In this document: piece after piece, positions 1 through 12,619 of the stretch | Layout: the number at the start of each line of letters is the position of its first letter | Position numbering within the stretch: the first letter of the stretch is position 1 | Assembly (NCBI GenBank): GCA_022824225.1 | Contig: JAJEAH010000048.1 | Span: 2,764-66,763 of the forward strand | Origin: Chloroflexota bacterium | GTDB taxonomy: Bacteria; Chloroflexota; UBA11872; VXOZ01 | Direction of reading: 5' to 3' | DNA length: 64,000 nucleotides | The notes under the pieces: model-generated | The model's input: only the letters and a program-made list of their open reading frames with translations | Databases searched by the model: none | Told to the model about the DNA's origin: nothing | Position numbers and translations under genes: made by a program

Positions 1-658
1 CGAGGAATGGGTGAATCGCCTCGAACTGGGCATGAACCAGAGCCAAGTGCGCCAACGGCGGCAAGGCGTCGTCGTGCAGGAATCGTTCCCAGTCGCCGAG
101 ACACGCCAAAAGCTCAGTAGGCGGAGGCGGAACATACGTTGCATCGTCTAGCGAGCAGCCCGGCGGACCGATCCAATTCTGGCTGCGGCGGAACTCTCCG
201 GGCGTTGCCGCCTCCCCTCGGACTCCGCTCATGAGCGCTTCGTGTAGCTCGCGTACGAGACGCAGCGACAGCGGCAACGTGTCAAGTCTTCCCAGCCCAT
301 ACTCCAGGGCAGCAACGTAATTGCTTACTTCATGCAAGTCGGTGGCATTCCGGGGCGCGGTCCCGCCGGCCTCGGCAGCCAACAGTTCGCCAAGTGTCGC
401 TTGGGTTCCCTCGATGCGGCTGGAAAGAACGGCCTCCTTACGCACAAATGGCCGGATCAAGAGATGAGGGTTGGCTAACCGTCTGCCTTCGCCGGCAAGC
501 TGACCGATGGCACGGTCGGCGGCGGACAGGCTGAGGCTAAGCCCCTGTTCCCAAACCAGAGGCGGCGGCAGCGCGGCCGGCACGTAGGCGCGGTAGCCTC
601 CCGGACACCTGACTACGCGACCATGCGGTACGCGCGCGGGAAAGGCAGTGGGCGACAC
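1..658 (-). CDS. Fic/DOC family protein (partial; 3' end runs off the window)
   Basis: Manual translation from GTG at 658 (SD-like AAGGGAAG upstream): ...GYRAYVPAALPP...ADRAIGQLAG...RKEAVLSSRIEGTQATL...LALVHAQFEAIHPFL, i.e. a Fic_N region followed by the start of the HPFxDGNGR motif at the window edge. Absent from the ORF track because it is truncated. Confidence 0.9.
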   Translation of the reverse strand, partial: MSPTAFPARVPHGRVVRCPGGYRAYVPAALPPPLVWEQGLSLSLSAADRAIGQLAGEGRRLANPHLLIRPFVRKEAVLSSRIEGTQATLGELLAAEAGGTAPRNATDLHEVSNYVAALEYGLGRLDTLPLSLRLVRELHEALMSGVRGEAATPGEFRRSQNWIGPPGCSLDDATYVPPPPTELLACLGDWERFLHDDALPPLAHLALVHAQFEAIHPFL

Positions 659-665
659 AGCTTCC

Positions 666-730
666 CTTATTTGCGGTTGCGAGAATACCAAACACTCTTA
701 TTATCACTCTAGAGGGTTTGCGCAAATAAG
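666..730. promoter_or_regulatory. 10-bp perfect inverted repeat upstream of the Fic gene (possible operator or RBS-sequestering hairpin)
   Basis: CTTATTTGCG (666-675) and CGCAAATAAG (721-730) flank an AT-rich stretch; the first arm abuts the Fic SD. Confidence 0.35.
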
Positions 731-803
731 ACAAGCTGGCTTTTCCGCTGGGGGTGCATAGCGGCCATGGCACTGGATCGATGACACGCAACCGTGTCTG
801 CCT

Positions 804-1193
804 TCAAACGTGCTGGTCTACCAGGATGGGATTGCCGTCGGGATCCACCACCACGAAGCTCTCCGGCCCGGTGGTGTCCTCATCGGCCTCGTTCACGAGT
901 TCCACGCCCTGCGCCTTGAGCTGCCGCTGCAACTCGCGCACGTCGGTGAAGCTCTCCACCGGCTGCGCCTGCCAATCCCACCCCGGATTAAAGGTGAGAA
1001 TGTTCTGCTCGAACATCCCCTGAAAGAGTCCAATCGTGGTCGTGCCGTTCCGCAGAATCAACCAGTTCTGCGCCGCGTCACCCCCCACCACCTCAAACCC
1101 AAACTTCGCATAGAAGTCCCGCGAAGCCGCGATGTCCTTCACCGCCAAGCTAACCGAAAACGCCCCGAGTTCCATGAAATGCTCCTGTCGCAT
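804..1193 (-). CDS. VOC/glyoxalase family protein
   Basis: [17 protein letters not shown] and [15 protein letters not shown] motifs, single-domain size; true start may be the MELGAF Met. Confidence 0.88.
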
Positions 1194-1297
1194 GCTAGTC
1201 TATGTGCCTTGCATTGTACCCCACAGCGAGCAGCCATTGACGGATAGGAGTCGCCCGCGGCGGCTACTCGTCACTGCTATGGATGTAGGCTAGCAAG

Positions 1298-1522
1298 CCG
1301 TTCGCCCTGAGCATCGTCGAAGGGTGAACGGCGGCGGAAGCGATTCGCGGCCTTAGACACGCTTCTCTCCGTTCACACTTCTACAGGCCTGCTATGCGCT
1401 TGTCGAAGTGCCCCGCACAAACAGAGAGATCGGCGTTCACTCTCAGTGCCTTGTGGGGCTTGACAGAGCCAGGGTGAATCCCATGAAAACCCTGTCCCTT
1501 CCTCGATGCTAAGGCGAACGGG
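1298..1522. repeat. REP-like palindromes, family B (CCGTTCGCcCTGAGC..GTCGAAG), partly decayed cluster
   Basis: CCGTTCGCCCTGAGCATCGTCGAAGGGTGAACGG at 1298-1331 (core repeated at 42128-42159) and a decayed inverted arm CCTCGATGCTAAGGCGAACGG near 1501-1521. Confidence 0.7.
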
Positions 1523-1572
1523 CCCGTGAACCCCTCTGGCAAACCAAGTGAGGCCTAGCCTTCCGCGCTTTT

Positions 1573-1651
1573 GTTGGGGGCACGACATGTCGTGCCCCTA
1601 CCATGAACTAGCGTCGGCAAGAACCGTCATGCCCGCGAACGCGGGAATCCA
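1573..1651. repeat. Two adjacent REP-like palindromes: GTAG-type (family D) and dRS3/RPE-like (family A)
   Basis: Perfect palindrome GGGGCACGACATGTCGTGCCCC (1577-1598) followed by TAC; CGTCATGCCCGCGAACGCGGGAATCCA (1625-1651). Confidence 0.75.
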
Positions 1652-1714
1652 TCTTCTCTTTGACCGGCCTTACACTATGAAAGGCAAACCAACGCATATG
1701 TGACTGATCACTCA

Positions 1715-1939
1715 CTACCGCTCGTTCATCTCATCCCGCGAAAACCGGCGCCCACCGGTGCCTATGGTCTCCCGCAACTCGCGTATCGCCGCCATCGCCT
1801 TATCAGCCTGCCGCCCGCGCTCCACGTAGTCCGTAAGCCACTGCCGAAAGAGCACCCCCAGAGTCGTCCCCTCCGCCGCAGCCCGCCGCCGCGCCGCTTC
1901 ATTTAAGCCCTCGTCGGCGCTCAGGGTGATGTTCTTCAT
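1715..1939 (-). CDS. Ribbon-helix-helix-type (VapB/DUF6364-like) antitoxin, orphan
   Basis: 74 aa; MKNITLSADE..AARRRAAAEGTTL..LFRQWL N-terminus and FSRDEMNER C-terminus typical of PIN-toxin partners; minus-strand TATAAT at 1973-1978 and GAGG SD. Confidence 0.78.
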   Translation of the reverse strand: MKNITLSADEGLNEAARRRAAAEGTTLGVLFRQWLTDYVERGRQADKAMAAIRELRETIGTGGRRFSRDEMNER

Positions 1940-2172
1940 GCCGTCAGCCTCATCAACATGCTTGTTGTGTGCATTATACTTCTGTGAAAACAGCCTTGCG
2001 GCTGTGCGCTACTCTCGGACACGCGCAGCATAGCTTGGGATCGGCGTGATTGAGCAGCAAACGTTGGGCGTATTAGAGAGCGCTGCATTGCTACAGTGGA
2101 CAAGGTATATAATAGACCCTGTAGAGTAGGAATGGTTCGCTACGAGACTGGACGAGCGATCAGGGGTGCGCC

Positions 2173-2403
2173 ATGAAAACGCAAGAGAGACCTGCCGAGG
2201 AAATCAGCGCGCAAGACGAATCCGCTTTGCTGCGGCACTTTGTCTTTGTCGCTATTTTTCGCAACTTTGTGAAGTCGTCGCACCGGTACCTCACCCAATC
2301 CTACGATGACTTTGGCAAGGGCTGGGAGGAGGATTTCTATGCCTGGCCAGGAAGCGCCTGGAAACGAAACGGATCGGCCATTGGCGGAATCTTCCGCAGA
2401 TGA
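2173..2403 (+). CDS. Small hypothetical protein
   Basis: 76-aa ORF with AGGGG SD and an upstream TATAAT (2108-2113); no family recognised. Confidence 0.35.
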   Translation: MKTQERPAEEISAQDESALLRHFVFVAIFRNFVKSSHRYLTQSYDDFGKGWEEDFYAWPGSAWKRNGSAIGGIFRR

Positions 2404-2491
2404 AGCCTCCGATTCCAGCTAGCAATCTATGCAACCCCTACACACATAAATCAACTGGGAGCCGCTGACAGGACTTAAAGAGGATTCCCCA

Positions 2492-2704
2492 ATGGAAAAG
2501 GACAGCACAGATCAAGAACCAAGGCAGATCAACTTGACACGAATAATTGCGTATTCGGGAGAACCTCGTGAGCCAGGCTATACGAAAGCACTCCTTGCCA
2601 ACATTCGAGAGATAAACCATTTTGGCTATCGTATAGCTGGGATTTATATGCTTCCAGGGAAAGCCCTGATTATCGGGGAACGCGTCCCGCTAGAAAGCGA
2701 ATAA
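2492..2704 (+). CDS. Small hypothetical protein
   Basis: 70-aa ORF in AT-richer DNA with AAGAGGA SD; globular-looking composition. Confidence 0.5.
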   Translation: MEKDSTDQEPRQINLTRIIAYSGEPREPGYTKALLANIREINHFGYRIAGIYMLPGKALIIGERVPLESE

Positions 2705-3021
2705 GAGAGTCCTAGCCTTCTCTAGCCTCAGGATGGTACCGCTATTCGCCCCTCGGCAACGTATTCCTGCAAAGACGCGAGGCTACTTTGCTTTTGCCTG
2801 CAACTCGTCGTGACGTGCAATCACCGCCGTAGCGCATTCTCTAGGTTGCAGCTAATACTTCCACGTGCCTCCACAGAGGATGACAAGAGCCTAACTCTGT
2901 CTCTCGGTCTCCTCAGACTGCGCTGTTTGTTTTCCAAATGGCACCTGCAAAGAACCTTTGCCTAGACATACGGTCGCGCCTCGAGTCTCAGAACGCGCGA
3001 ATTCAGGCTTTCGGGTTGTCA

Positions 3022-3050
3022 TTGTCAAGCAAAAGGAATGATAGTAAAGT
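3022..3050 (+). promoter_or_regulatory. Putative sigma70-type promoter of the Panacea operon
   Basis: TTGTCA (3022-3027), 17-bp spacer, TAAAGT (3045-3050); the -35 hexamer is tandemly duplicated (3016-3027). Confidence 0.5.
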
Positions 3051-3092
3051 GGAGTTATGGTGAGATTCTTTAACTATTATGGAGGATCTGTC

Positions 3093-3560
3093 ATGGAACA
3101 CGACGCCAGAAGCGTCGCTAACGAGTTCATCCGACGTGGTAAAGACGTTGGCAAACCCCTCACGCCTTTGCAGGTTCAGAAGCTAGTGTATTTTGCTCAT
3201 GCTTGGATGCTAGGTATCTACCGCCGTCCGTTGATCAATGAGCCCTTTGAAGTTTGGAAGTACGGCCCGGTTGTGCCAGTAGTATATTACTGCCTTCGGC
3301 ACTACGGCGGCGACCCAGTGACCGAAACCCTCCCAAATCACCCCGAGGACTTTGAGGACGAGTATGATTCTGCCGAGAATGACATCATCGACCAAGTCTT
3401 TCAAATATACGGGGGCCTTAGTGGAGGGCAGCTAATCACTCTAACCCACATGAAAGGCACGCCTTGGCATCAAGCAAAGAAGAAAGGGAATTGGTATATC
3501 CCTGACGACATGATTCGACGATTCTTCGCTGCTAAGGCGGAAGAGGCACGCCGTGAGTGA
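3093..3560 (+). CDS. Panacea-domain (DUF4065/SocA/GepA-like) antitoxin
   Basis: VAN.FI...LTPLQVQKLVYFAHAW.L...PLI.E.FEVWKYGPVVP..Y...L..LTH..GTPW signature; GGAGG SD at 3081-3085; alternative (leaderless) ATG at 3057. Confidence 0.92.
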   Translation: MEHDARSVANEFIRRGKDVGKPLTPLQVQKLVYFAHAWMLGIYRRPLINEPFEVWKYGPVVPVVYYCLRHYGGDPVTETLPNHPEDFEDEYDSAENDIIDQVFQIYGGLSGGQLITLTHMKGTPWHQAKKKGNWYIPDDMIRRFFAAKAEEARRE

Positions 3561-3963
3561 CCGCACGAAGAAGGTGCCGCCTGTTGACAGCAAAGTTGAA
3601 CTTGATGACGTAAGTACGGAAGAGGCTTCCGAGTACAAGGAGCCAGCCTATGCGCAGCTTTCAAGAGAGAGCCAGTTTGAAAGAGACGAGGAGTGGCTTA
3701 ATGAGTGGGCAAGGATTAAGAAGTGGTCTGTTCGCGCCGTGATTTGGGGTGGTGGTTCACTCCTCGCGATCCTGGTATTAGTTGTCTTCGCCACCGCTGT
3801 AGCTCACTTATTCATACCCCAGATCGGATGGCTTGATGAGAAGCAGCAACTTAGGCTCGTTGCATGGTACTCATCCGTTGCGCAGGTGCTATTTCCTGTG
3901 CTCATTGTCACTAACCCTTGGTTGCTGCGTTTGCTACCGCGCCGAAAAAAGAACGGAGATTAG
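3553..3963 (+). CDS. Two-TM membrane protein, candidate PanT toxin
   Basis: Overlaps the Panacea gene by 8 bp; acidic N-terminus, two hydrophobic segments, basic C-terminal tail. Confidence 0.7.
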   Translation: MSDRTKKVPPVDSKVELDDVSTEEASEYKEPAYAQLSRESQFERDEEWLNEWARIKKWSVRAVIWGGGSLLAILVLVVFATAVAHLFIPQIGWLDEKQQLRLVAWYSSVAQVLFPVLIVTNPWLLRLLPRRKKNGD

Positions 3964-4132
3964 CCCTCAGCTCCCGAAAGTCGCCGCAAGACATTCAAGA
4001 CGGAGTTCCGTACCTTCTGGCGCTCTACACTAAGAACGCCTCGTCAATATCGATAAGGCGTTCTTTGCTTTGTAGTGACGGTAAGGACTGGAAAGGTCAC
4101 CTAAGCTCATGCCGGGTTCACGGTAGTCGCCG

Positions 4133-7100
4133 CTACAGCCGCCGGTTGGAGATGACGGGTTCGGAGGCGAGGAGGTGGCGGAGGGTGCTGAGGTTGGGGA
4201 GATCAAGGATGTGGGTGAGGCCGTCGTCGAGGGCTTGACGGGCGGGGCAGTGGGCCATGCCGGGGAGCCGCTCGAATTCGGCGGTGGCGAGTGTGTCGAA
4301 GAGGCGGGAGAGGGATTGAAGCTGGGAGGCGGGGAGACGGCGGGGGTCGAGGACGGGCAGGTTTGCGAGGTCAGCCTTTTTCAGTGCAACCCAGCCTCCT
4401 CTTGTGCTAGTCCGCTGGGCCAGTATTGTCAGCAAGCCCAAGCTGGAGTTCATCCAAGCAACCAGCGCCTTCTCCATGGCCTCGGCTTCAACGGTGACGG
4501 GCCACCACACGTTTGATAGAACTCGCACTTCCGACTGCATGGCAACAATCCTGGTCGTCTCTAGCCAAAGCCTCTCCGATATAAGGAGCCGACTAGATTG
4601 TTGCCAAAGGTGTTCACCATACCCTGGCCGCTGTCCGCCTCTTGGCTTTACTAGTGGCGAAAGATAGGCGTCAGGCGAACACGTCATGGTCTTTCTTTGC
4701 TCCGTGTCGTGACCTTCAACCATAGGATAGGCTGTAACCGAACTCGTCCTATCGAACCCATCAACCAGTCTCCGTCTGTCAGGGCCGATTTCACCAAGTT
4801 CCCGCAGTTTGCACAGCGGAATGCTGGCGGTTGACGGCTCGCCGGGGACCCAGACTTCTCCATCATCCAACAGGCGCGCGGCGCTCCTTAACACGTCGGC
4901 GCGGGCGAATTGGACGCCGAACCACTGCTTGCCGGCCAGGTCTGGTTCCGGGATGGAGACCACTTCGCCTACGTCCTGGCCGTCCACTCTCAGTAGCGCT
5001 GTGCCGGATTCTTCCAGTTCTGCCGGGGGCGTTTCGCTGACGGCCTGCGCGGCGCGGTGGGCGTCCACGATGCCGTCCGGGTTGTGCCAGAGGTTGACGA
5101 AGGTGGTGCGGGGTGAAGATGGGTGCTCGCCCCGTATCGCGTACGGGGCAGGCTTTTCGTGTGACTCGTCACTCCGGCGGAGGCCGGAGTCCAGGGCACG
5201 CGGAGAGGATGGATTCCCGCTTGCGCGGGAATGACGGTCACTTTCTGGTGCGCGGGAATGACGGTCTGCTCCTGGATTCCGGTTTTCACCGGAATGACGG
5301 ACTGCCTCTGGATTCCGGCTTTCGCCGGAATGACGGAACGAGGCGCCGGTATGACGGGTTGATGCGCTGGCGCGGCGCGTGGCGATGAGCAGGGCTTCCG
5401 AGAGGTCGGTGCTGTCCGAGAAGTTCCAGCGTTGGGGATCGTGGGACGCAATCACCATATCGAGGGTGAAGTCCTGCTCGATCAAGGCACGGGTCTGCGC
5501 CCAGGAGGGGCCGGTGCAGACGGTGAGCGGCAGCACCAAAGCCAGCCGTCCCTCGCCGGGGAGCAGGTTAGGCGAAACGGCCGCCACGAACGCCGCGCCG
5601 AGACCGGCGGTGGCGGAGGCCTGCCGCGACTTCAGGCGGCGCGCCAGTTCGTCCTGGAGCTTGCGCCGTTCTCCCGCCGGCAGACTGCCGAACAACAGAT
5701 TGCCGCCCACGGAGCGCGTAAACGGCGGATTCATGATCGCCAGGTCGAGCTTGGGCAGCGTGGCTTTCGCGCCTTCCGCCGTGCCGCGCGCGCCGCTGCC
5801 CGCCACCTGCGCCACGTCGCCGCTGGTCACGCCGGTTTCCTGCGGGGAGAGCGCGTGCTGCACCGGCGCTTCAGTCGTTCCCAGGAAGTCCAGCGAGCCG
5901 AGCGACACGCGCTCACTCTCCACGCCCAGGGGCATGACGTAGAGGTTCATGCGGTCGAACTGGATGTGCGGGTTGAGCATCGCGAGGCTGGTGGCGGCGA
6001 AGTGAATGGCGGAAAGCTGCACGTCGTAGCCGTGCAGGGCTTGTTCCACCATGGCCTTGTGCAGCGCGGCGGCGCGCTTGCCCCCAGCGGCTTTGTGGCG
6101 GCGTTCCGCTTCCGCAGCCACCGCCATGAGCAGCGTCCCGGTGCCGCAGGCCAAATCGGCTACGCTGAGGGAGCCAGGAAACGTGTGGTCGCGCCAGTCA
6201 ACGCCCGCCGGCCAGTTGTGAAAGACCAGCCGTGTCAGCAACGTGGCCGCGGGCACTGAGGTGTAGTACGCGCCAGTAAACTTGGCGTCGGACAAGAGGG
6301 TGTGGAAGAGCCGCCCCGAGAGGTCGTGGCCTTCCACGTTGCGCGTCTCCGCTACTGCCTTGACCAGGGGCAGGATGACGGGCGTGCGCACGTCGGCCGG
6401 CCCGTCCTCGAGCACCGCGAGAATCTCGGCCGCCAAGGCAAAGACCGGCACGTAGTCGATGGTGTCGCAGATGAAGCGCCAGGTTTGCCGCAGGCTGGGA
6501 ATGCCCTGCCGTGAGGCTTCGCGCACCGTTTTCACGTCATCGTTGACGGCGGCCAGGCGGTCCTGGAACGCCAGCGCGTTGAAAAGCGCCAGGCAACCGA
6601 TGCGCAGCGCGGCGGCGCGGTTCTTCTCCTGGTCGGTTTCGGCTATGAGGTCGGCAATGCGGCGGGTGATGCGCTCGTGTTTATCAAGCCGGTACACCGC
6701 TTGCTCCAGCGCGTAGCTGATGGATTGCGCGGCGGCTTCCACCTGGTCCGTGACCTGCAACTCCAGGGGCAAGGTGCGCAGGTGGTCGGCGAGATCGGCG
6801 ACGGAACCGGTCCGTATCTGGCGCGGCGCTTGCGGCGAAGCCTTGGCCATCTCGAGCAGCGTCGGCAACGTCGCCAGCCACCACTGGAGGTCAGCGGCTT
6901 TCTCCAGTTCCGCTTGGGTATCCTCCGCATGACGCAGCCGTTCGGGGTAGAGCACGCCGAGCACGGCGAGCGCCTCGGGAAAAGCGGCGCGGCGTTCCTG
7001 GAGTTGGGCCTCCAGAGAACTCTCCGAACCCTCCCACTTGCACTCCAAGAGGATCAGGCCGCTGCGCAAGTTTATGCGCACGTCGGGCGCGCCTCGCCGG

Positions 7101-7210
7101 CTGCGGCGCTCCGCCTTGGCCGGAACGCCGCGCTGCGAAAGCAGAAGGGCCAGGTGGACGTTTACTTCCTCTTCGCGCGTAGTCTCTGTTTCTTTTGCTC
7201 TGCTTGCCAT
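4133..7210 (-). CDS. Type IIG/IIL-like restriction-modification fusion (PD-(D/E)xK nuclease + gamma-class N6-adenine MTase + TRD) with in-frame repeat insertion
   Basis: N-terminal APDVRI...LLECKW; GAYYTS, motif I DLACGTGTLL and motif IV IMNPPF; TRD-like C-terminus (AWMNSSLG...DLANLPVLD); 1025 aa. Confidence 0.88.
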   Translation of the reverse strand: MASRAKETETTREEEVNVHLALLLSQRGVPAKAERRSRRGAPDVRINLRSGLILLECKWEGSESSLEAQLQERRAAFPEALAVLGVLYPERLRHAEDTQAELEKAADLQWWLATLPTLLEMAKASPQAPRQIRTGSVADLADHLRTLPLELQVTDQVEAAAQSISYALEQAVYRLDKHERITRRIADLIAETDQEKNRAAALRIGCLALFNALAFQDRLAAVNDDVKTVREASRQGIPSLRQTWRFICDTIDYVPVFALAAEILAVLEDGPADVRTPVILPLVKAVAETRNVEGHDLSGRLFHTLLSDAKFTGAYYTSVPAATLLTRLVFHNWPAGVDWRDHTFPGSLSVADLACGTGTLLMAVAAEAERRHKAAGGKRAAALHKAMVEQALHGYDVQLSAIHFAATSLAMLNPHIQFDRMNLYVMPLGVESERVSLGSLDFLGTTEAPVQHALSPQETGVTSGDVAQVAGSGARGTAEGAKATLPKLDLAIMNPPFTRSVGGNLLFGSLPAGERRKLQDELARRLKSRQASATAGLGAAFVAAVSPNLLPGEGRLALVLPLTVCTGPSWAQTRALIEQDFTLDMVIASHDPQRWNFSDSTDLSEALLIATRRASASTRHTGASFRHSGESRNPEAVRHSGENRNPGADRHSRAPESDRHSRASGNPSSPRALDSGLRRSDESHEKPAPYAIRGEHPSSPRTTFVNLWHNPDGIVDAHRAAQAVSETPPAELEESGTALLRVDGQDVGEVVSIPEPDLAGKQWFGVQFARADVLRSAARLLDDGEVWVPGEPSTASIPLCKLRELGEIGPDRRRLVDGFDRTSSVTAYPMVEGHDTEQRKTMTCSPDAYLSPLVKPRGGQRPGYGEHLWQQSSRLLISERLWLETTRIVAMQSEVRVLSNVWWPVTVEAEAMEKALVAWMNSSLGLLTILAQRTSTRGGWVALKKADLANLPVLDPRRLPASQLQSLSRLFDTLATAEFERLPGMAHCPARQALDDGLTHILDLPNLSTLRHLLASEPVISNRRL
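5129..5358. repeat. Cluster of dRS3/RPE-like palindromes (family A) inside the RM coding sequence
   Basis: Units at 5167-5194 (inverted), 5210-5237, ~5250-5264 (half), 5272-5300, 5308-5336 and ~5343-5358 (half), plus GCCCCGTATCGCGTACGGGGC at 5129-5149; translated as repeated RHSGESRNP-like peptides. Confidence 0.9.
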
Positions 7211-7297
7211 TGTTGGTGGTTTCCCTATTGCGCGGGGCTAAGGGTGCACGGCCTTGGTTTTTGGATTACGCAGATGTTTGCGCGTTGTGGCGCCAAG

Positions 7298-7363
7298 AGC
7301 GGGGGACAAGCCCCTGCGCTACTTCAAGGCACAGATGGATTCCCGCGTGCGCGGGAAAGACGG
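7298..7363. repeat. REP-like elements of family E (GCGGGGGACAAGCCCC..CGCTAC) and family A
   Basis: 7298-7322 resembles 22851-22872; TGGATTCCCGCGTGCGCGGGAAAGACGG at 7336-7363. Confidence 0.7.
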
Positions 7364-7439
7364 ACAGGATTGGCGCCCCTGGGGGGTTTAGTAGACTTGC
7401 GATTGCGCTTGTCACAAGACCGCAATTCGCCCTCTCGCC

Positions 7440-8255
7440 CTAGCACTTCGTCTTGAACAACCGCGCCAGGTTCTCGCCGAGGATTAGTTTCTTTTCCGCT
7501 TCGGTGATTGGGGACAGGAGCACGCGGCCGAGTTGGTAGGTGGCGCAGGTCCAGGGCATATCGGAGCCGTAGAGGATCTTGTTCGCGCCGGCGAGGCGCA
7601 CCATTTCGGTGAAGTCGCCGCGGTAGCCCACTGAAGCCGCGGTATCCAGGTAGACGTTCGGTTCTTCCGCCGCCACCTGCACCAGATCCAGGCTGCTCTT
7701 GGGACTGCCGCCGGCGGCGTGGGCCACGATGAAGTGGGCGCCGGGATATTCGCGGGCGATGCGGCGCAGCGTCGCGGGCGTGCCGGTGCCGTGGCTGATG
7801 AGGGGCAGGCGGTGGCGGTGGGCCAGCTCGAACGCGGGCACGTAGCCGGGGCCGTCGAAGGGATAATTGGCCGTGCCGGTATGCAGCTTGATGCCCACCG
7901 CGCCGGCATCCAAGCAGCGCTGCAACTCGTCCCGCACCAGGTCCGCCTCGTGGGGATCGGGCACGGCGTAGGCCAGCAAGCGGCCGGGGAACTGCCGCGC
8001 CGCCGCCAGCGAGATGTCGTTGCCTTCCCGCATGTCCAGCAAGATTGCCATAGAAGAAAAGACACACGCCTGGTCCATGCCCACGCGGTCCATGGTGCGC
8101 ACCATGCCCGCGGCGTCGTTGAAGGTCTGGTAGAAGAGCGCGGTGGGGCCCACGTGACAGTGGTTGTCGATGACCAGCGTGCCGTGGAGCGGCGTGCCGT
8201 CCAGGGCCTGTTCGCGAAGTGACGAGGTGGGTGCGGTGGGAGCGCCTGCTGCCAT
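7440..8255 (-). CDS. Amidohydrolase_2 family metal-dependent hydrolase
   Basis: IDNHCH, GIKLH, ISHG, IVAHA, NVYLDT and KILYGSDMP motifs; start reassigned to ATG 8255 (GAGG SD). Confidence 0.9.
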   Translation of the reverse strand: MAAGAPTAPTSSLREQALDGTPLHGTLVIDNHCHVGPTALFYQTFNDAAGMVRTMDRVGMDQACVFSSMAILLDMREGNDISLAAARQFPGRLLAYAVPDPHEADLVRDELQRCLDAGAVGIKLHTGTANYPFDGPGYVPAFELAHRHRLPLISHGTGTPATLRRIAREYPGAHFIVAHAAGGSPKSSLDLVQVAAEEPNVYLDTAASVGYRGDFTEMVRLAGANKILYGSDMPWTCATYQLGRVLLSPITEAEKKLILGENLARLFKTKC

Positions 8256-8347
8256 GGGTGCCTGCCTCACGTTCGTGGTGTGTGTTGGCTCGTCGCGGGG
8301 TTGCTGGCTATGATTATACCCCGCGGCGCGGCCAAACCGTCTGGGGT

Positions 8348-8741
8348 GGCGGCCCCCTGCGCGGGGAACGGCCTGGCTGAAGTCAACGTCGGCATACGCG
8401 CCAAAGGTGGCGGCCCCCTGCGCGGGGAACGGACGTCCGCTGCCGCCTCTGCGCCCGCCGCGTCGGCGCGGCAGTCCCATTCGCGCCGGACGACGCCCAT
8501 TCCGTCATTCCGGCGAAAGCCGGAATCCAGGGCAGCCCCATGCACGCGAGGCGGCGACAAGATCAAGGTGCTGCACGGCCTGCGCGCGCAAAGCAGCCCC
8601 ATGCACGCGAGGCAGTGACGCACTGCCGCCAGTGGGTCTTTGCCCCACCCCTGGCAGCCCCATGCACGCGAGGCGGCGACCTTGCTGCTCGTGCTGCTGA
8701 GCAAACGCTCAACGGCGGCCCCATGCACGAGACGCGCCGCC
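8348..8741. CRISPR. Degenerate orphan CRISPR-like array (type I-E-like geometry): 7 repeats of ~28 bp, 6 spacers of ~33 bp
   Basis: Repeat starts at 8348, 8409, 8470, 8531, 8592, 8653 and 8714 (exact 61-bp period). Copies 4 and 6 are identical (GGCAGCCCCATGCACGCGAGGCGGCGAC); copies 1-2 read CCGTTCCCCGCGCAGGGGG on the minus strand, resembling I-E repeats. No cas genes in the window. Confidence 0.6.
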
Positions 8742-8999
8742 AATCCGGCTGCGCCGCCCTCTTCCCCAGCGGCACGGAGCGCACCGGCGGCGCGCGCCAA
8801 GCGGTTTGTCTGCCGCCCTCCCGCTGTGCGCCGCATTCCCGCACGGGCCAAACTATGCGTCCGGCCCGCTCCGCCATCCGGCAGTTTCCACAGCGCTGAT
8901 TACCCTTCGTGGTACGATACACCGGTAAGTTCAATGCGCAGCGCATCCGCGAGTATAGCGCCAGTGGTCCCGCTGGCCGCCGCTCCCAAGAGGGATTCT

Positions 9000-10067
9000 A
9001 TGGAACGCACGAAAGACCCCTCGGAACACGCCAGAGAACCGACGACGCCGACACCAACGCCGCCACCGACGCGCGCCGAGAACCTGCAGGAGCGCACGCT
9101 CGACGCCGGCGAGTACGTGGCATCCCTGCCGGAACGCCTGGTGCGCAGCGCTGCCGCCGGGGCCGGCGGCCTGGTGCACGAGACCTCCGAGGTCGTGCTG
9201 CCGCCGCCGATACGCCACTCGCAACTCTATCAGTCCACCATCGGGCGCATGGTGCGCATAGTGGTGGAATTCGTAGGCGGCGTGTCAGGGCCGGAAGCGG
9301 CTGACGCGATGGCGATACAGGACCTCGCCGTGCGCAAGCTGGCCGGCAACGCGGTAGAGGTGGCGAGCGTGGTGGCCGTGGGGTGGTCGCCGCTCTGGAT
9401 GCTGGCGGCGGCGGCTGACGTCACCGGCGGCACACGGGCGTATTTGGACGCTTTCGTGAAAGAACTCGAAGACTCTCACGTGCTGCCGCCGGACGCCAAC
9501 GTTTCCTCCGTGGACGAACTGCTCGCCGCGCTGGGGAACACCTCCGGCCAAATGGCCGATACAATTGACATCCCGCCGCTGGCGCTCAATGACATGCGCA
9601 CGAGTTTGCAGGAATTTCGCAGCCACGCCGGGCAACTCCCCGACCCGCGCGACCTCACCCAGATATTCACGGAAATGAACCGCGCCGCGGCGGAACAGAA
9701 CCGCTCGCTGTTCACGGTTTCGTCGCTCGTCGCCGCCGGAGCGGTGCAGGCGGGCATCCAGCTTGGCAACGTGCATGTCTTTTCGTTTTATCGGGGCTCG
9801 CTGAGCACAATTCGCGCGGAAGGCGTGCCGGCATATCTGCAACGCATCAGCCAACCGTACCTGGAAGCCGCCGCGCTGCACCTGCGCCCCAGCAGCAGCA
9901 CCCACACCCAACGGCTCCTCCGGCGCTTTCTCACCCGGCGCTGGCGCAAACGCTCTGCCAACGAGGGCTCTCCCCCCGCAATAGAGGCGACAAAGACGGA
10001 CAGGCCGGAGGAATCCCGCGCCGGCGACCCCGAGGACGATACCACGCGCCAATCGCAAAGGCCATGA
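9000..10067 (+). CDS. Hypothetical, mostly helical protein
   Basis: Host-like codon usage from ATG 9000 (AAGAGGGA SD); the upstream extension in the ORF track runs through the repeat array and is probably spurious. Confidence 0.75.
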   Translation: MERTKDPSEHAREPTTPTPTPPPTRAENLQERTLDAGEYVASLPERLVRSAAAGAGGLVHETSEVVLPPPIRHSQLYQSTIGRMVRIVVEFVGGVSGPEAADAMAIQDLAVRKLAGNAVEVASVVAVGWSPLWMLAAAADVTGGTRAYLDAFVKELEDSHVLPPDANVSSVDELLAALGNTSGQMADTIDIPPLALNDMRTSLQEFRSHAGQLPDPRDLTQIFTEMNRAAAEQNRSLFTVSSLVAAGAVQAGIQLGNVHVFSFYRGSLSTIRAEGVPAYLQRISQPYLEAAALHLRPSSSTHTQRLLRRFLTRRWRKRSANEGSPPAIEATKTDRPEESRAGDPEDDTTRQSQRP

Positions 10068-10315
10068 GCGAAAATACCCCCACGCCCCGACCGCCGCCGG
10101 ACACGATCGTGCCATACCGGCGGCGTATCTGAGACAGGCAGGCGATGTTTGGGCATAGAAAATCTACCCTTTACTGCCTCCCTTTTGCGATTCCGCCTTC
10201 TCTGCTGAGTGTTTCCCTGCGCGCAGGCAGCGGTAAAGGACATCCGGTCCGCCGCAGAGCGGGCGCGGCGGCAAGAACGAGCAAGCGGTCGCACCGATCG
10301 ACAGGACACTAAGCA

Positions 10316-11086
10316 ATGCTTCTCGTACTGGACATCGGCAACACGAATATCGCCGTGGGCGCTTTCGAAGCGAGCGCGCTGAAGGGGTCCTGGCGGCTGA
10401 ATACGGAAATCGGCAAGACGAGCGACGAATACGGCGTGCAAATCGTTGCGTTTATACGGCATGCCGGACTGGACGCACACCGCTGCGAAGCCGTCATCGT
10501 ATCCAGCGTGGTGCCGCCGCTGGCGCGCGCCGTCAACGATCTCTGCGTCAAGTATCTGGGGCATACGCCCGTGCTCATCGATCCCCGCGCCGTGCCCGGC
10601 GTGGCGGTGGAGATCGACCGGCCGGAGGAAGTCGGCGCCGACCGGGTGGTGAACGCGGCAGCGGCCTTCGAGCGCCACGGCGGCCCGTGCATCGTCATCG
10701 ACTTCGGCACGGCTACCACCTTCGACGTAGTCTCGGCGGCGGGCAACTACACAGGCGGCGCCATCGCGCCGGGGCTGGGTCTGGCCACGGAAGCCCTGGT
10801 CGCCCATGCCTCCCGCCTCTACCGCGTTGAGTTCGTGCCGCCAAAAACGGTGGTGGGCAAGAGCACCATCCACGCCATGCAGTCCGGCATCATGCTCGGC
10901 TATCTTTCCTTGGTGGAAGGCATGATCCGCCGCTTTCACGACGAGATTGGCGTCTGCACGGTGGTGGCAACCGGCGGTTTTGCCGGCCTCTTTGCTAAGC
11001 ACACGTCGGTGATCGACGCGGTAGACGCGAACCTGACGCTGGAAGGCCTGCGGATAGTGTACGACCGCCTGCAACGGGGCACGTAG
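10316..11086 (+). CDS. coaX: Type III pantothenate kinase
   Basis: LVLDIGNTN, EVGADR, IDFGTATT, GGAIAPG, VVATGG and LTLEGL motifs. Confidence 0.96.
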   Translation: MLLVLDIGNTNIAVGAFEASALKGSWRLNTEIGKTSDEYGVQIVAFIRHAGLDAHRCEAVIVSSVVPPLARAVNDLCVKYLGHTPVLIDPRAVPGVAVEIDRPEEVGADRVVNAAAAFERHGGPCIVIDFGTATTFDVVSAAGNYTGGAIAPGLGLATEALVAHASRLYRVEFVPPKTVVGKSTIHAMQSGIMLGYLSLVEGMIRRFHDEIGVCTVVATGGFAGLFAKHTSVIDAVDANLTLEGLRIVYDRLQRGT

Positions 11087-11410
11087 GTCGGCTCGTTTCA
11101 GTCGCTCTTGGCCCAGTACCACCGTCGCGCGCGGGGCCTTTCGCCTGCGCCGTGCCAAGCTCTGCCTTGCCCGCGGTTGCCAACCTTTGCCACGCAGAGA
11201 CGGAGGTTACCCGCCCTGCGCTCTTTCTCCGCAGATTCCGCCAAGCCGTGCCGCGCCGGGACGGAAGTCTACCTGAGTGAAAGCAACGCTGCGCGCATCG
11301 ATTTGGTGGGGAGTCTTGGGCCCGGCGCTCAAGTCCGCGATGCTATTCCCCGCCCGTATACTGGTGTACAGTGAGACCGGTGCCCTGAGGGAGTTGAGGG
11401 GAGCGAGCGC

Positions 11411-12619
11411 ATGAGCGTCTTGGGCGGAAAGAACATCCTGCTTGGCGTGTGCGGCAGCATTGCCGCCTTCAAGGCGGTGGCGTTGGCCAGCCAGCTCAAC
11501 CAGGCCGGGGCGGCGGTCACTACTATTCTCACCAAAGACGCCGCGCGCTTCGTTACGCCGCTTTCGTTCACGAGCGTCACGCAGCGTCCGGCCTACATCG
11601 ACCTCTACACGCCCGATCCCGGCCGCATCTTGCACATTGCCCTGGCCGAGGAGGCCGACCTGCTGGCCGTCGTGCCCGCCACCGCACACACCCTGGGCCG
11701 CATGGCGCAGGGACTGGCCGACGATCTCCTGACCTGCACCGTTCTCAGCACACAAGCGCCGGTGCTCGTTGCTCCCGCCATGGACGGCGGCATGTTCACC
11801 AATCCCGCCACACAGCAGAATCTGGCGACTCTGCGGGAGCGGGGCGTGCACGTGGTGGAGCCGTTGGCCGGCAGGCTGGCGTCGGGTCTCGTGGCCCAGG
11901 GGCGGCTGCCGGAAGTGGATGCGCTCATCGCCGAAATGCGCGCCGTGCTCGGCAGCGGCGGCCCACTGGCGGGCAAGACGGTGGTCGTTACCGCGGGCGG
12001 CACGCAGGAGCCGCTGGACCCCGTGCGCTACATCGGCAACCGCTCCAGCGGCAAGATGGGATTCGCCCTGGCGGAGGCGGCCAGAGACTACGGGGCGCGG
12101 GTGATACTCATCACAGGCGCCACCACCGCGCCGCCGCCCCACGGCATGGAAACAGTTTCCGCAACCACGGCCGCCGCCATGCAGGCCGCGGTCAACGAAC
12201 ACACCGCCCAGGCGGATGCGCTGATCATGGCCGCGGCAGTCGCCGACTACCGGCCCCAGACTGCCCAGGGCCAAAAGACGAAACGCACCGGCGATTCGCT
12301 TGCCCTTACCCTGGTTGAGAACGAGGACATTCTGGCCCAAGTCCCGCACACCCTCGTGAAAGTCGGCTTCGCCGCCGAGACCGAGCACATGATAGAGCAT
12401 GCGGAGAGCAAACTCACGCGCAAGAGCGCGGACCTCATCGTCGCCAATGATGTGTCTCGAGCCGACAGCGGCTTTGGCACGGACACGAACCAGGTGGTGA
12501 TCCTGAGCAGAGATAGACCCCCGGAGTCGCTGCCGGTGCTCGCCAAGACCGAGGTCGCCGAGACCATCCTGCAACGTGTGGCAGCCCTCCTCCGGCACGG
12601 GGCCGGCCGTTCGTGCTGA
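11411..12619 (+). CDS. coaBC: Bifunctional phosphopantothenoylcysteine decarboxylase/phosphopantothenate-cysteine ligase
   Basis: GSIAAFK, PATAHTL, APAMD, TAGGTQEPLDPVRYIGNRSSGKMG, AAVADY, VGFAAET and IVANDV motifs. Confidence 0.97.
   Translation: MSVLGGKNILLGVCGSIAAFKAVALASQLNQAGAAVTTILTKDAARFVTPLSFTSVTQRPAYIDLYTPDPGRILHIALAEEADLLAVVPATAHTLGRMAQGLADDLLTCTVLSTQAPVLVAPAMDGGMFTNPATQQNLATLRERGVHVVEPLAGRLASGLVAQGRLPEVDALIAEMRAVLGSGGPLAGKTVVVTAGGTQEPLDPVRYIGNRSSGKMGFALAEAARDYGARVILITGATTAPPPHGMETVSATTAAAMQAAVNEHTAQADALIMAAAVADYRPQTAQGQKTKRTGDSLALTLVENEDILAQVPHTLVKVGFAAETEHMIEHAESKLTRKSADLIVANDVSRADSGFGTDTNQVVILSRDRPPESLPVLAKTEVAETILQRVAALLRHGAGRSC

Follow-up and report, generated by a model that had tools for sequence, protein, structure and literature searches.

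The window analysed here is a stretch of 64,000 nucleotides (nt) from a Chloroflexota bacterium (GenBank assembly GCA_022824225.1, contig JAJEAH010000048.1, positions 2,764 to 66,763 of the forward strand). On its minus strand lies an open reading frame (ORF) of 1025 amino acids (aa), with zero stops in its translation, which is predicted to encode a type IIG-like restriction-modification (RM) fusion protein and which contains 88 codons built from short palindromic DNA repeats. An earlier note on this DNA had described such a block of in-frame palindromic repeats within the 1025-aa ORF; the reading frame, the peptides and a shuffle control all agree with it, and the observation is confirmed. 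The gene and the parts of its block are as follows.

4133..7210, minus strand: host gene, predicted type IIG-like RM fusion, 1025 aa (from ORF translation, motifs and Foldseek)
5108..5371, minus strand: 264-nt linker built of repeats (codons 614-701, 88 aa), its limits set by comparison with homologues whose linker has 10 aa
~5343..5357, minus strand: decayed 5' half unit (CCGTCATACCGGCGC), read RHTGA, with position and frame common to all repeat-bearing orthologues
5309..5334, minus strand: full unit with a perfect 8-bp stem, read RHSGESRNP
5273..5298, minus strand: full unit, 36 nt from the unit at 5309..5334, read RHSGENRNP
~5248..5264, minus strand: 5' half unit, read RHSRAP
5210..5235, minus strand: full unit, read RHSRASGNP, forming an inverted pair with the unit at 5168..5193
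5168..5193, plus strand: inverted full unit of the GTCACTCC..GGAGTCCA subtype, with the gene-strand reading LDSGLRRSD
5129..5149, no strand: second palindrome (GCCCCGTA-N5-TACGGGGC), located within the decayed last unit; the close allele P0002 lacks it

The block peptide ASASTRHTGASFRHSGESRNPEAVRHSGENRNPGADRHSRAPESDRHSRASGNPSSPRALDSGLRRSDESHEKPAPYAIRGEHPSSPR follows ...NFSDSTDLSEALLIATRR and precedes TTFVNLW.... Four full units, two half units, one decayed unit and the nested second palindrome make up the block, with no stop and no frameshift. The unit pattern GTCATTCCSGN6CSGGAATCCA, with up to 2 mismatches, has seven matches in the window (1626, 5168, 5210, 5273, 5309, 7336, and 8504), compared with a mean of 0.00 in 100 dinucleotide-preserving shuffles, 0 of which had any match. 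Within the block, Tandem Repeats Finder reports periods of 27 nt (2.0 copies) and 36 nt (2.3 copies). The RNA of the block folds at -120.2 kcal/mol, versus -84.8 ± 5.0 kcal/mol in 200 shuffles (z = -7.15), and a search of Rfam with window positions 1-12000 at E ≤1 gave no match.

The host protein (P0001) combines an N-terminal PD..ExK motif (D43, E56, K58) with a methyltransferase (MTase) motif I, DLACGTG (residues 352-358), and motif IV, NPPF (494-497), followed by a C-terminal recognition part. In an alignment of 58 homologues, D43, K58 and NPPF are invariant, as are six residues of DLACGTG; E56 and L353, the remaining residue of DLACGTG, reach at least 90% conservation. All residues invariant in these 58 homologues are kept by P0001, on both sides of the block. 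The family comprises 2565 proteins at E ≤0.001 among 8000 scored candidates. A Pfam search of the protein gave no match, NCBIfam gave only a far sub-threshold match to MADS2, and a PDB sequence profile search returned nothing meaningful; PADLOC reported two weak matches over residues ~290-410, to MTase_II (E 7.1e-8) and REase_MTase_IIG (E 2.5e-4). For the AlphaFold2 model (mean predicted local distance difference test (pLDDT) score 62, with a poor MTase core), the top Foldseek match is the type IIG enzyme BpuSI (3s1s, E 4.3e-10). Later matches are M.BseCI, CamA, and M.TaqI, which are gamma-class adenine methyltransferases with recognition domains, and then BsaXI, DrdV, and PglX. By predicted fold and by motifs, a nuclease, a gamma-class N6A methyltransferase (its core modelled at low confidence) and a recognition part would therefore share one chain, as in type IIG enzymes. 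Since fold and motifs match, "restriction-modification enzyme" is a fair name for the predicted product.

In the same model, residues 616-697 have a pLDDT below 50 and no secondary structure according to DSSP, and confidence recovers immediately after them. The block had been placed between the MTase and the target recognition domain, which is roughly right: it falls between predicted strands 606-612 and 701-707.

The units consist of a CGTC tag, an 8-bp stem with AT as its first letters (ATTCCSGC/GCSGGAAT), a loop of 4 nt and, as tail, CCA. Stem, loop and tail read ATTCCSGC-NNNN-GCSGGAAT-CCA, and the units of the block read cCGTCATT... The CGTC-1 class of repetitive extragenic palindromic (REP) sequences is defined by a CGTC (or TGTC/CCTC) tag, an 8-bp stem starting with A-T, a 4-nt loop and an unpaired CCA tail (PMC3733652), and the units have the tag, the stem, the loop and the tail of that definition. 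The inverted pairs of CGTC-1 ("HH dimers") are also present, at window 5168-5235 and in contigs C3, C30, C45, C46, C73, and C86, positions that are examples and not a systematic count. With up to 1 mismatch, the CGTC-tagged pattern has 109 copies in the genome of the host, and 0 were found with a control pattern. It occurs in 29 of 41 related genomes; the 17 from the genus all have it, and three other families have no match (control 0 throughout). A looser oriented pattern finds 137 units genome-wide. The consensus of the Neisseria NTS repeat, at up to 1 mismatch (the criterion of PMC11893778 itself), has 26 copies in the genome versus 0 for a reversed control; window 5209-5236, which is the unit at 5210-5235 with its flanks, matches it with 1 mismatch. 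Judged by sequence, the block repeat has the defining features of a CGTC-1 REP, also called NTS or Ssn-related motif (SRM). CGTC-1 has been equated with Neisseria dRS3 and with the Rickettsia conorii element RPE-6 (Di Nocera, De Gregorio, Rocco 2013, PMC3733652). Therefore, the two analogies drawn in the earlier note, to Rickettsia palindromic elements (RPE) and to dRS3, concern a single family, and the relation is closer than had been claimed.

Three copies had also been reported between genes. All of them, at 1626, 7336, and 8504, lie outside any ORF of at least 80 aa with a family match.

1626..1651, plus strand: intergenic copy of the same family
7336..7361, minus strand: intergenic copy between the start of the RM gene and the upstream amidohydrolase gene
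8504..8529, plus strand: intergenic copy that fills one 33-nt "spacer" of a 61-nt periodic array

The second palindrome, GCCCCGTA-N5-TACGGGGC, forms a family of its own, with about 25 copies: the one at 5129-5149 and some 24 others elsewhere in the genome, often with conserved flanks. The flanks of some of these end in GGGAATCCATCT, as if the palindrome were nested in the loop of the first repeat.

Comparison with homologues delimits the insertion. In a set made up of the query and its 120 best matches (n = 121), the linker at this site measures 9-11 aa in 111 proteins and 18-101 aa in 10; in P0001, 88 repeat-derived residues occupy it. Nine of the ten long-linker proteins carry the RHS...NP and LDSGLRRSD peptides, and in the tenth, P0047, the linker contains a decayed stretch resembling VIP..GIQ, another of the unit's reading frames. 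The linkers of repeat-free homologues are polar and vary freely (PRQPAKAGSR, PETRDSIERR, SKKHKKVKRR); these linkers and the predicted disorder are both consistent with a loop on the surface, where the MTase core ends. Of 25 genome loci compared as DNA, 24 were informative: 17 have an intact linker of 10-26 aa without a repeat, 5 have an intact linker with a repeat, one is broken by an insertion sequence (IS), and one is frameshifted without a repeat. In the metagenome-assembled genome (MAG) of a relative (L016), a frameshift near 5800-5850 in a repeat-free linker reflects either a pseudogene or a sequencing error.

Within the genus, an orthologue of the host gene is present in 11 of 16 congeners, in records that probably overlap those of the 25-locus comparison. 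With the host's own genome included, eight of 12 orthologues carry a block and four have the 10-aa linker. The seven intact blocks measure 54, 81, 93, 135, 138, 264, and 327 nt; no two lengths are the same and each is divisible by 3. The eighth block-bearing copy has 81 nt plus an IS. As with the Rickettsia elements, the insertion is in frame in a conserved gene whose conserved residues are kept. The left junction (..GCATCA[A/C][A/C]C-CGTCA..) and the reading frame (CGT CAT TCC, read RHS) are common to all repeat-bearing alleles, and this points to one original insertion behind all of them. In a tree calculated with the linker masked, the nine block-bearing proteins fall within one 24-leaf clade with a support of 1.0.

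The block has also changed recently. In the sequence that flanks the block, the alleles P0001 and P0002 share at least 95% identity, but a 7-aa half unit and the 8-aa nested palindrome distinguish their blocks; in addition, a 227-nt contig from a different study, which spans 5224-5429, carries precisely this kind of insertion, a 21-nt half unit after base 5254. These differences indicate that the block changes faster than its flanks, by turnover of whole in-frame pieces.

Units of the family are also found inside other genes. Forty-one of the 137 units fall within open frames that are at least 250 codons long and extend 60 codons or more to either side of the unit; many of these are chance frames in a genome of 63% GC. 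In a Pfam scan of eight unit-bearing ORF pieces, seven matched: UvrA, MoeA, a FadB-like enzyme, Methyltransf_28, APH, and the two halves of an Eco57I-type RM gene. The UvrA gene (G000:C29:1286-5767; L033) has 11 in-frame units, with ~390 residues between UvrA_inter and UvrA_DNA-bind. The second RM gene of the genome, of the Eco57I/N6_Mtase type, carries an in-frame block as well; the assembly breaks within these repeats, which leaves the gene divided between two contig ends (G000:C2:29-2755, minus strand, and G000:C43:3-2126, plus strand). The 28 in-frame units found in nine ORF pieces (one lacks a Pfam match) are read unevenly: 26 use RHSxESxNP or its mirror (L/M)DSxxxxxD, two read VIPAKAGIH and none use the other two open frames. 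This bias toward polar frames fits a filter that would admit hydrophilic, disordered loops.

Taken together, these observations make it likely that the block is a tolerated, translated and fast-changing loop built of CGTC-1/NTS hairpin repeats. Under this hypothesis, one unit would have entered a short, variable and polar loop between the last methyltransferase strand (...LLIATRR) and the C-terminal part (TTFVNLW...), with the first insertion taking place in an ancestor within the genus. The site may then have gained and lost whole units, acquired an inverted pair and a nested second palindrome, and partly decayed, the survivors being only those versions that kept the frame and a polar reading (RHSxESxNP or its mirror LDSxxxxSD). 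The outcome would be a disordered surface loop that is translated and that the enzyme tolerates. The earlier note had likewise proposed a tolerated loop made from selfish DNA, and the idea is borne out insofar as the insert is repeat-derived, is predicted to be unstructured, and stands where homologues have short linkers. The anatomy of the block, the identity of its repeat family, its site, the multiple-of-three length polymorphism and the frame bias are all observed; from them we infer that the block is translated and neutral.

Several points weigh against this hypothesis. The MTase core of the model is poor, so the term "surface loop" rests mainly on sequence comparison. In the linker-masked tree, the nine block-bearing proteins are interleaved with 15 short-linker proteins instead of forming one clade, so that alleles must have been exchanged, or the block lost repeatedly, if it arose only once; given the mosaic nature of the gene, the tree does not discriminate allele exchange from repeated events. 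Five of the six frames of any unit are open, which makes an open block weak evidence in itself. The four full units have perfect stems, which could reflect selection at the DNA or RNA level instead of neutrality, or a young age. Neither a REP-associated tyrosine transposase (RAYT) nor an IS110 element was found in the assembly, which is 95% complete; repeats and IS copies often fail to assemble. Finally, in the probable source run no single contig spans the whole block, which is tiled by contigs covering 4100-5301, 5273-5333, and 5309-7250, and contigs of the RNA run X20 cover only 32-36-nt repeat units, which occur at many loci, and two short conserved patches.

Concerning the spread of the units, no match to RAYT (PF01797) was obtained in the host's genome, with a control positive in 6 of 14 genomes, and the Y1 transposase of IS200/IS605 type that characterizes REPIN/RAYT systems was therefore not found there; IS110 (PF01548) also had 0 matches in this genome. 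Three small single-domain GIY-YIG ORFs were identified. One of them (C50:60074-60361) encodes 96 aa from its Met, GIY-YIG is the sole Pfam match of its stop-to-stop frame, and a unit lies 6 nt from its 3' end. At the 12 best-match loci of this gene, including its own, a unit is present within 135 nt in all 12 and on both sides in 5. A homologue of it exists in 20 of 29 repeat-bearing genomes versus 1 of 12 repeat-free ones, counts that are not independent given that the genomes are related. The NTS/SRM system is likewise marked by a motif-flanked single-domain GIY-YIG gene, and its product SsnA has ~94 aa. For the 96-aa protein, NCBIfam gave only a sub-threshold match to a group I intron endonuclease, and a PDB sequence search found UPF0213 (1zg2, E 0.0036). 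The spread of the units is possibly linked to this SRM-flanked gene as a candidate partner. A second small GIY-YIG ORF (C71:19029-19616) stands amid four copies of a different hairpin variant, GTCATTCCGAGCCCGGCGAGGAATCCA (G000:C71:18498-20133), which suggests a second nuclease-motif pair.

In the MAG of a relative (L008; the same place as G013), the orthologous RM gene is split by an IS110-family element of 1189 bp (L008:5829-7017) with a 332-aa ORF at 5992-6990 (DEDD_Tnp_IS110, E 1.1e-23; Transposase_20, E 4.6e-17). The element lies inside the first half unit of the block (CGTCATT^CC), and its landing there is one real cost of carrying the block.

These data bear on the possibility of a function at the DNA level, in which the in-gene hairpins would be sites for the cell's own Ssn-like nuclease and/or landing pads for IS110, so that a defence gene would be cut, varied or knocked out more often, possibly reversibly, or the transfer of single-stranded DNA would be limited. 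The repeat-flanked 96-aa GIY-YIG gene, whose arrangement is conserved in relatives, speaks for this possibility, as do the IS110 element in the orthologue, the block in the second RM gene of the same genome, and the perfect stems of the full units. Moreover, SsnA cuts NTS hairpins in single-stranded DNA and modulates transformation in Neisseria (PMC11893778). However, the IS event is one among eight block-bearing orthologues, the host's own assembly yielded no IS110, units are also present in the housekeeping genes UvrA, MoeA, and FadB, where switching makes little sense, and the GIY-YIG gene is a candidate both in its activity and in its membership of the CDD family cd10448. Such a function therefore seems unlikely, with a small chance of being correct. 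A more specific version is a long shot: in-gene SRM arrays would not be passive, and a putative Ssn-like nuclease of the cell would nick their hairpins when the gene is single-stranded, thereby driving the expansion and contraction of units and attracting IS110. If this were true, the two RM genes and UvrA would gain a frame-preserving hypervariable loop as well as a population-level insertional off-switch.

It is very unlikely that the block is an artefact of misassembly in a repeat region, or that the gene is dead and no longer translated through the block. The short-read contigs do break inside the block, the MAG contigs C2 and C43 end in the same repeats, and the contigs of the RNA run lie on repeat units and two short patches only. 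However, the contig tiles overlap consistently, and the homologue P0002, a separate assembly whose flanks are at least 95% identical, shows the block in the same layout, which argues against misassembly. Blocks are also carried at the same site by relatives with single-contig chromosomes (G006, G003, G015, and G011), and the conservation of all invariant residues on both sides of the block in P0001 does not suggest a dead gene. The four sequencing runs were compared as contigs and not as raw reads, and the coverage gaps in runs X2 and X3 carry no weight; the many contig "joints" inside the block, whose sides are shorter than 36 nt, are best read as other repeat loci.

The earlier note had also suggested that the block might act as a recombination hinge, that is, as a patch of homology for exchange of the C-terminal recognition part between alleles. 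The C-terminal part is in fact mosaic: over P0001 residues ~790-945 (window ~4376-4843), two sequence types, 48-60% identical within a 95% identical background, are shuffled among close alleles regardless of overall relatedness, in what looks like the swapping of a recognition module. However, P0001 and P0002, the closest pair, are 92-100% identical across the junction and fall to 48-60% only ~90-100 residues downstream, recovering near the C-terminus. The hinge is contradicted for this pair because the breakpoints lie away from the block, and the same mosaic is seen in homologues with a 10-aa linker; a role of this kind is thus highly improbable.

Finally, a phase-variation switch, in which the gain or loss of units would shift the frame and toggle the enzyme on and off, is scarcely credible: close alleles, and also species, do differ in their number of units, and phase-variable RM genes are well known, but the switch is already contradicted by unit periods of 27 and 36 nt instead of lengths that are not multiples of 3, by intact block linkers that are multiples of 3 in seven of seven cases, and by observed indels of 21 nt and 8 codons, while the block has no homopolymer or short tract and the two broken orthologues owe their state to an IS (G013) and to a TAA elsewhere in the gene (G010), not to unit slippage.

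Genes near the host gene encode a SocA/Panacea protein, a Fic protein and an amidohydrolase. Two other features of the window were observed. At 8345-8741, seven imperfect repeats of 24-28 nt follow an exact period of 61 nt (8345, 8406, 8470, 8531, 8592, 8653, and 8714). The repeat (..CCCC..GCGGGGAAC..) is found only there in the genome and its spacers are unlike each other, with one 33-nt spacer (8498-8530) being a hairpin unit of the CGTC-1 family. The arrangement resembles a CRISPR array, but Rfam gave no match, Cas1 (PF01867) has 0 matches in the host's genome, and Tandem Repeats Finder reported no tandem array at 7200-9300. The second feature is a region of ~1.8 kb (1250-3050), between a glyoxalase-like gene and the SocA/Panacea gene, that has no ORF of at least 80 aa, no Rfam match, and a GC content of 0.49-0.59 versus ~0.65.

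The settling of this repeat family in frame within genes is already known from Rickettsia and other bacteria. What is added here is a gene family, a host phylum, a series of block lengths within a genus, the frame bias, a candidate Ssn-like gene and an IS110 event, which together make a well-documented case of CGTC-1/NTS repeats settling in frame in genes of Chloroflexota from sponge metagenomes. Three literatures thus meet in one sequence family: that on Rickettsia RPE, that on Neisseria dRS3/NTS and the Ssn nuclease, and that on REP-targeting IS110 elements. The genus offers a natural series (10 aa when repeat-free; 18 to 109 aa, in frame, when repeat-bearing; one copy broken by an IS) for studying how a type IIG enzyme tolerates inserts, and the same series could reveal how arrays grow. 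There is also a warning for annotation: RHSRESGNP, MDSRxxGND, and VIPAKAGIH are translated repeats, not protein domains. A literature search for the repeat-encoded peptides gave no match.

Among known enzymes, the predicted host protein is closest to BpuSI, with the same order of nuclease, methyltransferase and recognition parts, a fold that matches over the full length, and both PD..ExK and NPPF. Unlike BpuSI-type enzymes, it has ~78 extra disordered residues after the MTase core, and it lacks a sequence match in Pfam or among solved structures.

The Rickettsia palindromic elements, reportedly described by Ogata et al. in 2000 and 2002 and by Claverie and Ogata in 2003, are similar in that palindromic repeats are found in frame, at positions that the protein fold can accommodate, within genes whose function is kept. 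At 100-150 bp, RPE-1 is the longer element. In the present case, units of 26-36 nt accumulate in arrays, and array length varies between species.

IS elements that target REP sequences are also relevant, and Tobes and Pareja are said to have described such elements in 2006. The IS110-family element in L008 resembles the REP-targeting IS110 elements, which are bridge-RNA recombinases, in that it sits inside a unit of the block; its target, however, is within a coding region, so that the insertion breaks the gene. By comparison, ISPpu10 is described as landing in copies of one conserved intergenic sequence (10.64898/2026.03.19.712850).

The likeness to CGTC-1 REPs extends to tag, stem, loop, tail, inverted pairs, high copy number and in-frame genic copies, including in uvrA. 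Intragenic CGTC-1 copies are described in the published survey, many within genes for replication and repair, uvrA among them, and clusters of them encode 43-82 aa (PMC3733652). The blocks in the present RM family, in contrast, reach 88-109 aa, and the gap in UvrA amounts to ~390 aa. The host phylum differs as well, as the available portion of that source names Chloroflexi for GTAG repeats only. The words "restriction," "methylase," and "methyltransferase" are absent from its main text.

The term "Ssn-related motif" was found in the literature search only in Chenal et al. 2025 (PMC11893778), in which "intragenic" and "Chloroflex" are absent. The NTS/SRM and SsnA system is similar: the motif is near-identical, and the motif-flanked GIY-YIG gene encodes 94 aa, compared with 96 aa here. 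Its NTS-ssnA-NTS layout is matched by the present one. An excess of symbionts among motif-rich species is also noted there (PMC11893778), and the present host comes from animal-associated samples, namely sponge metagenomes.

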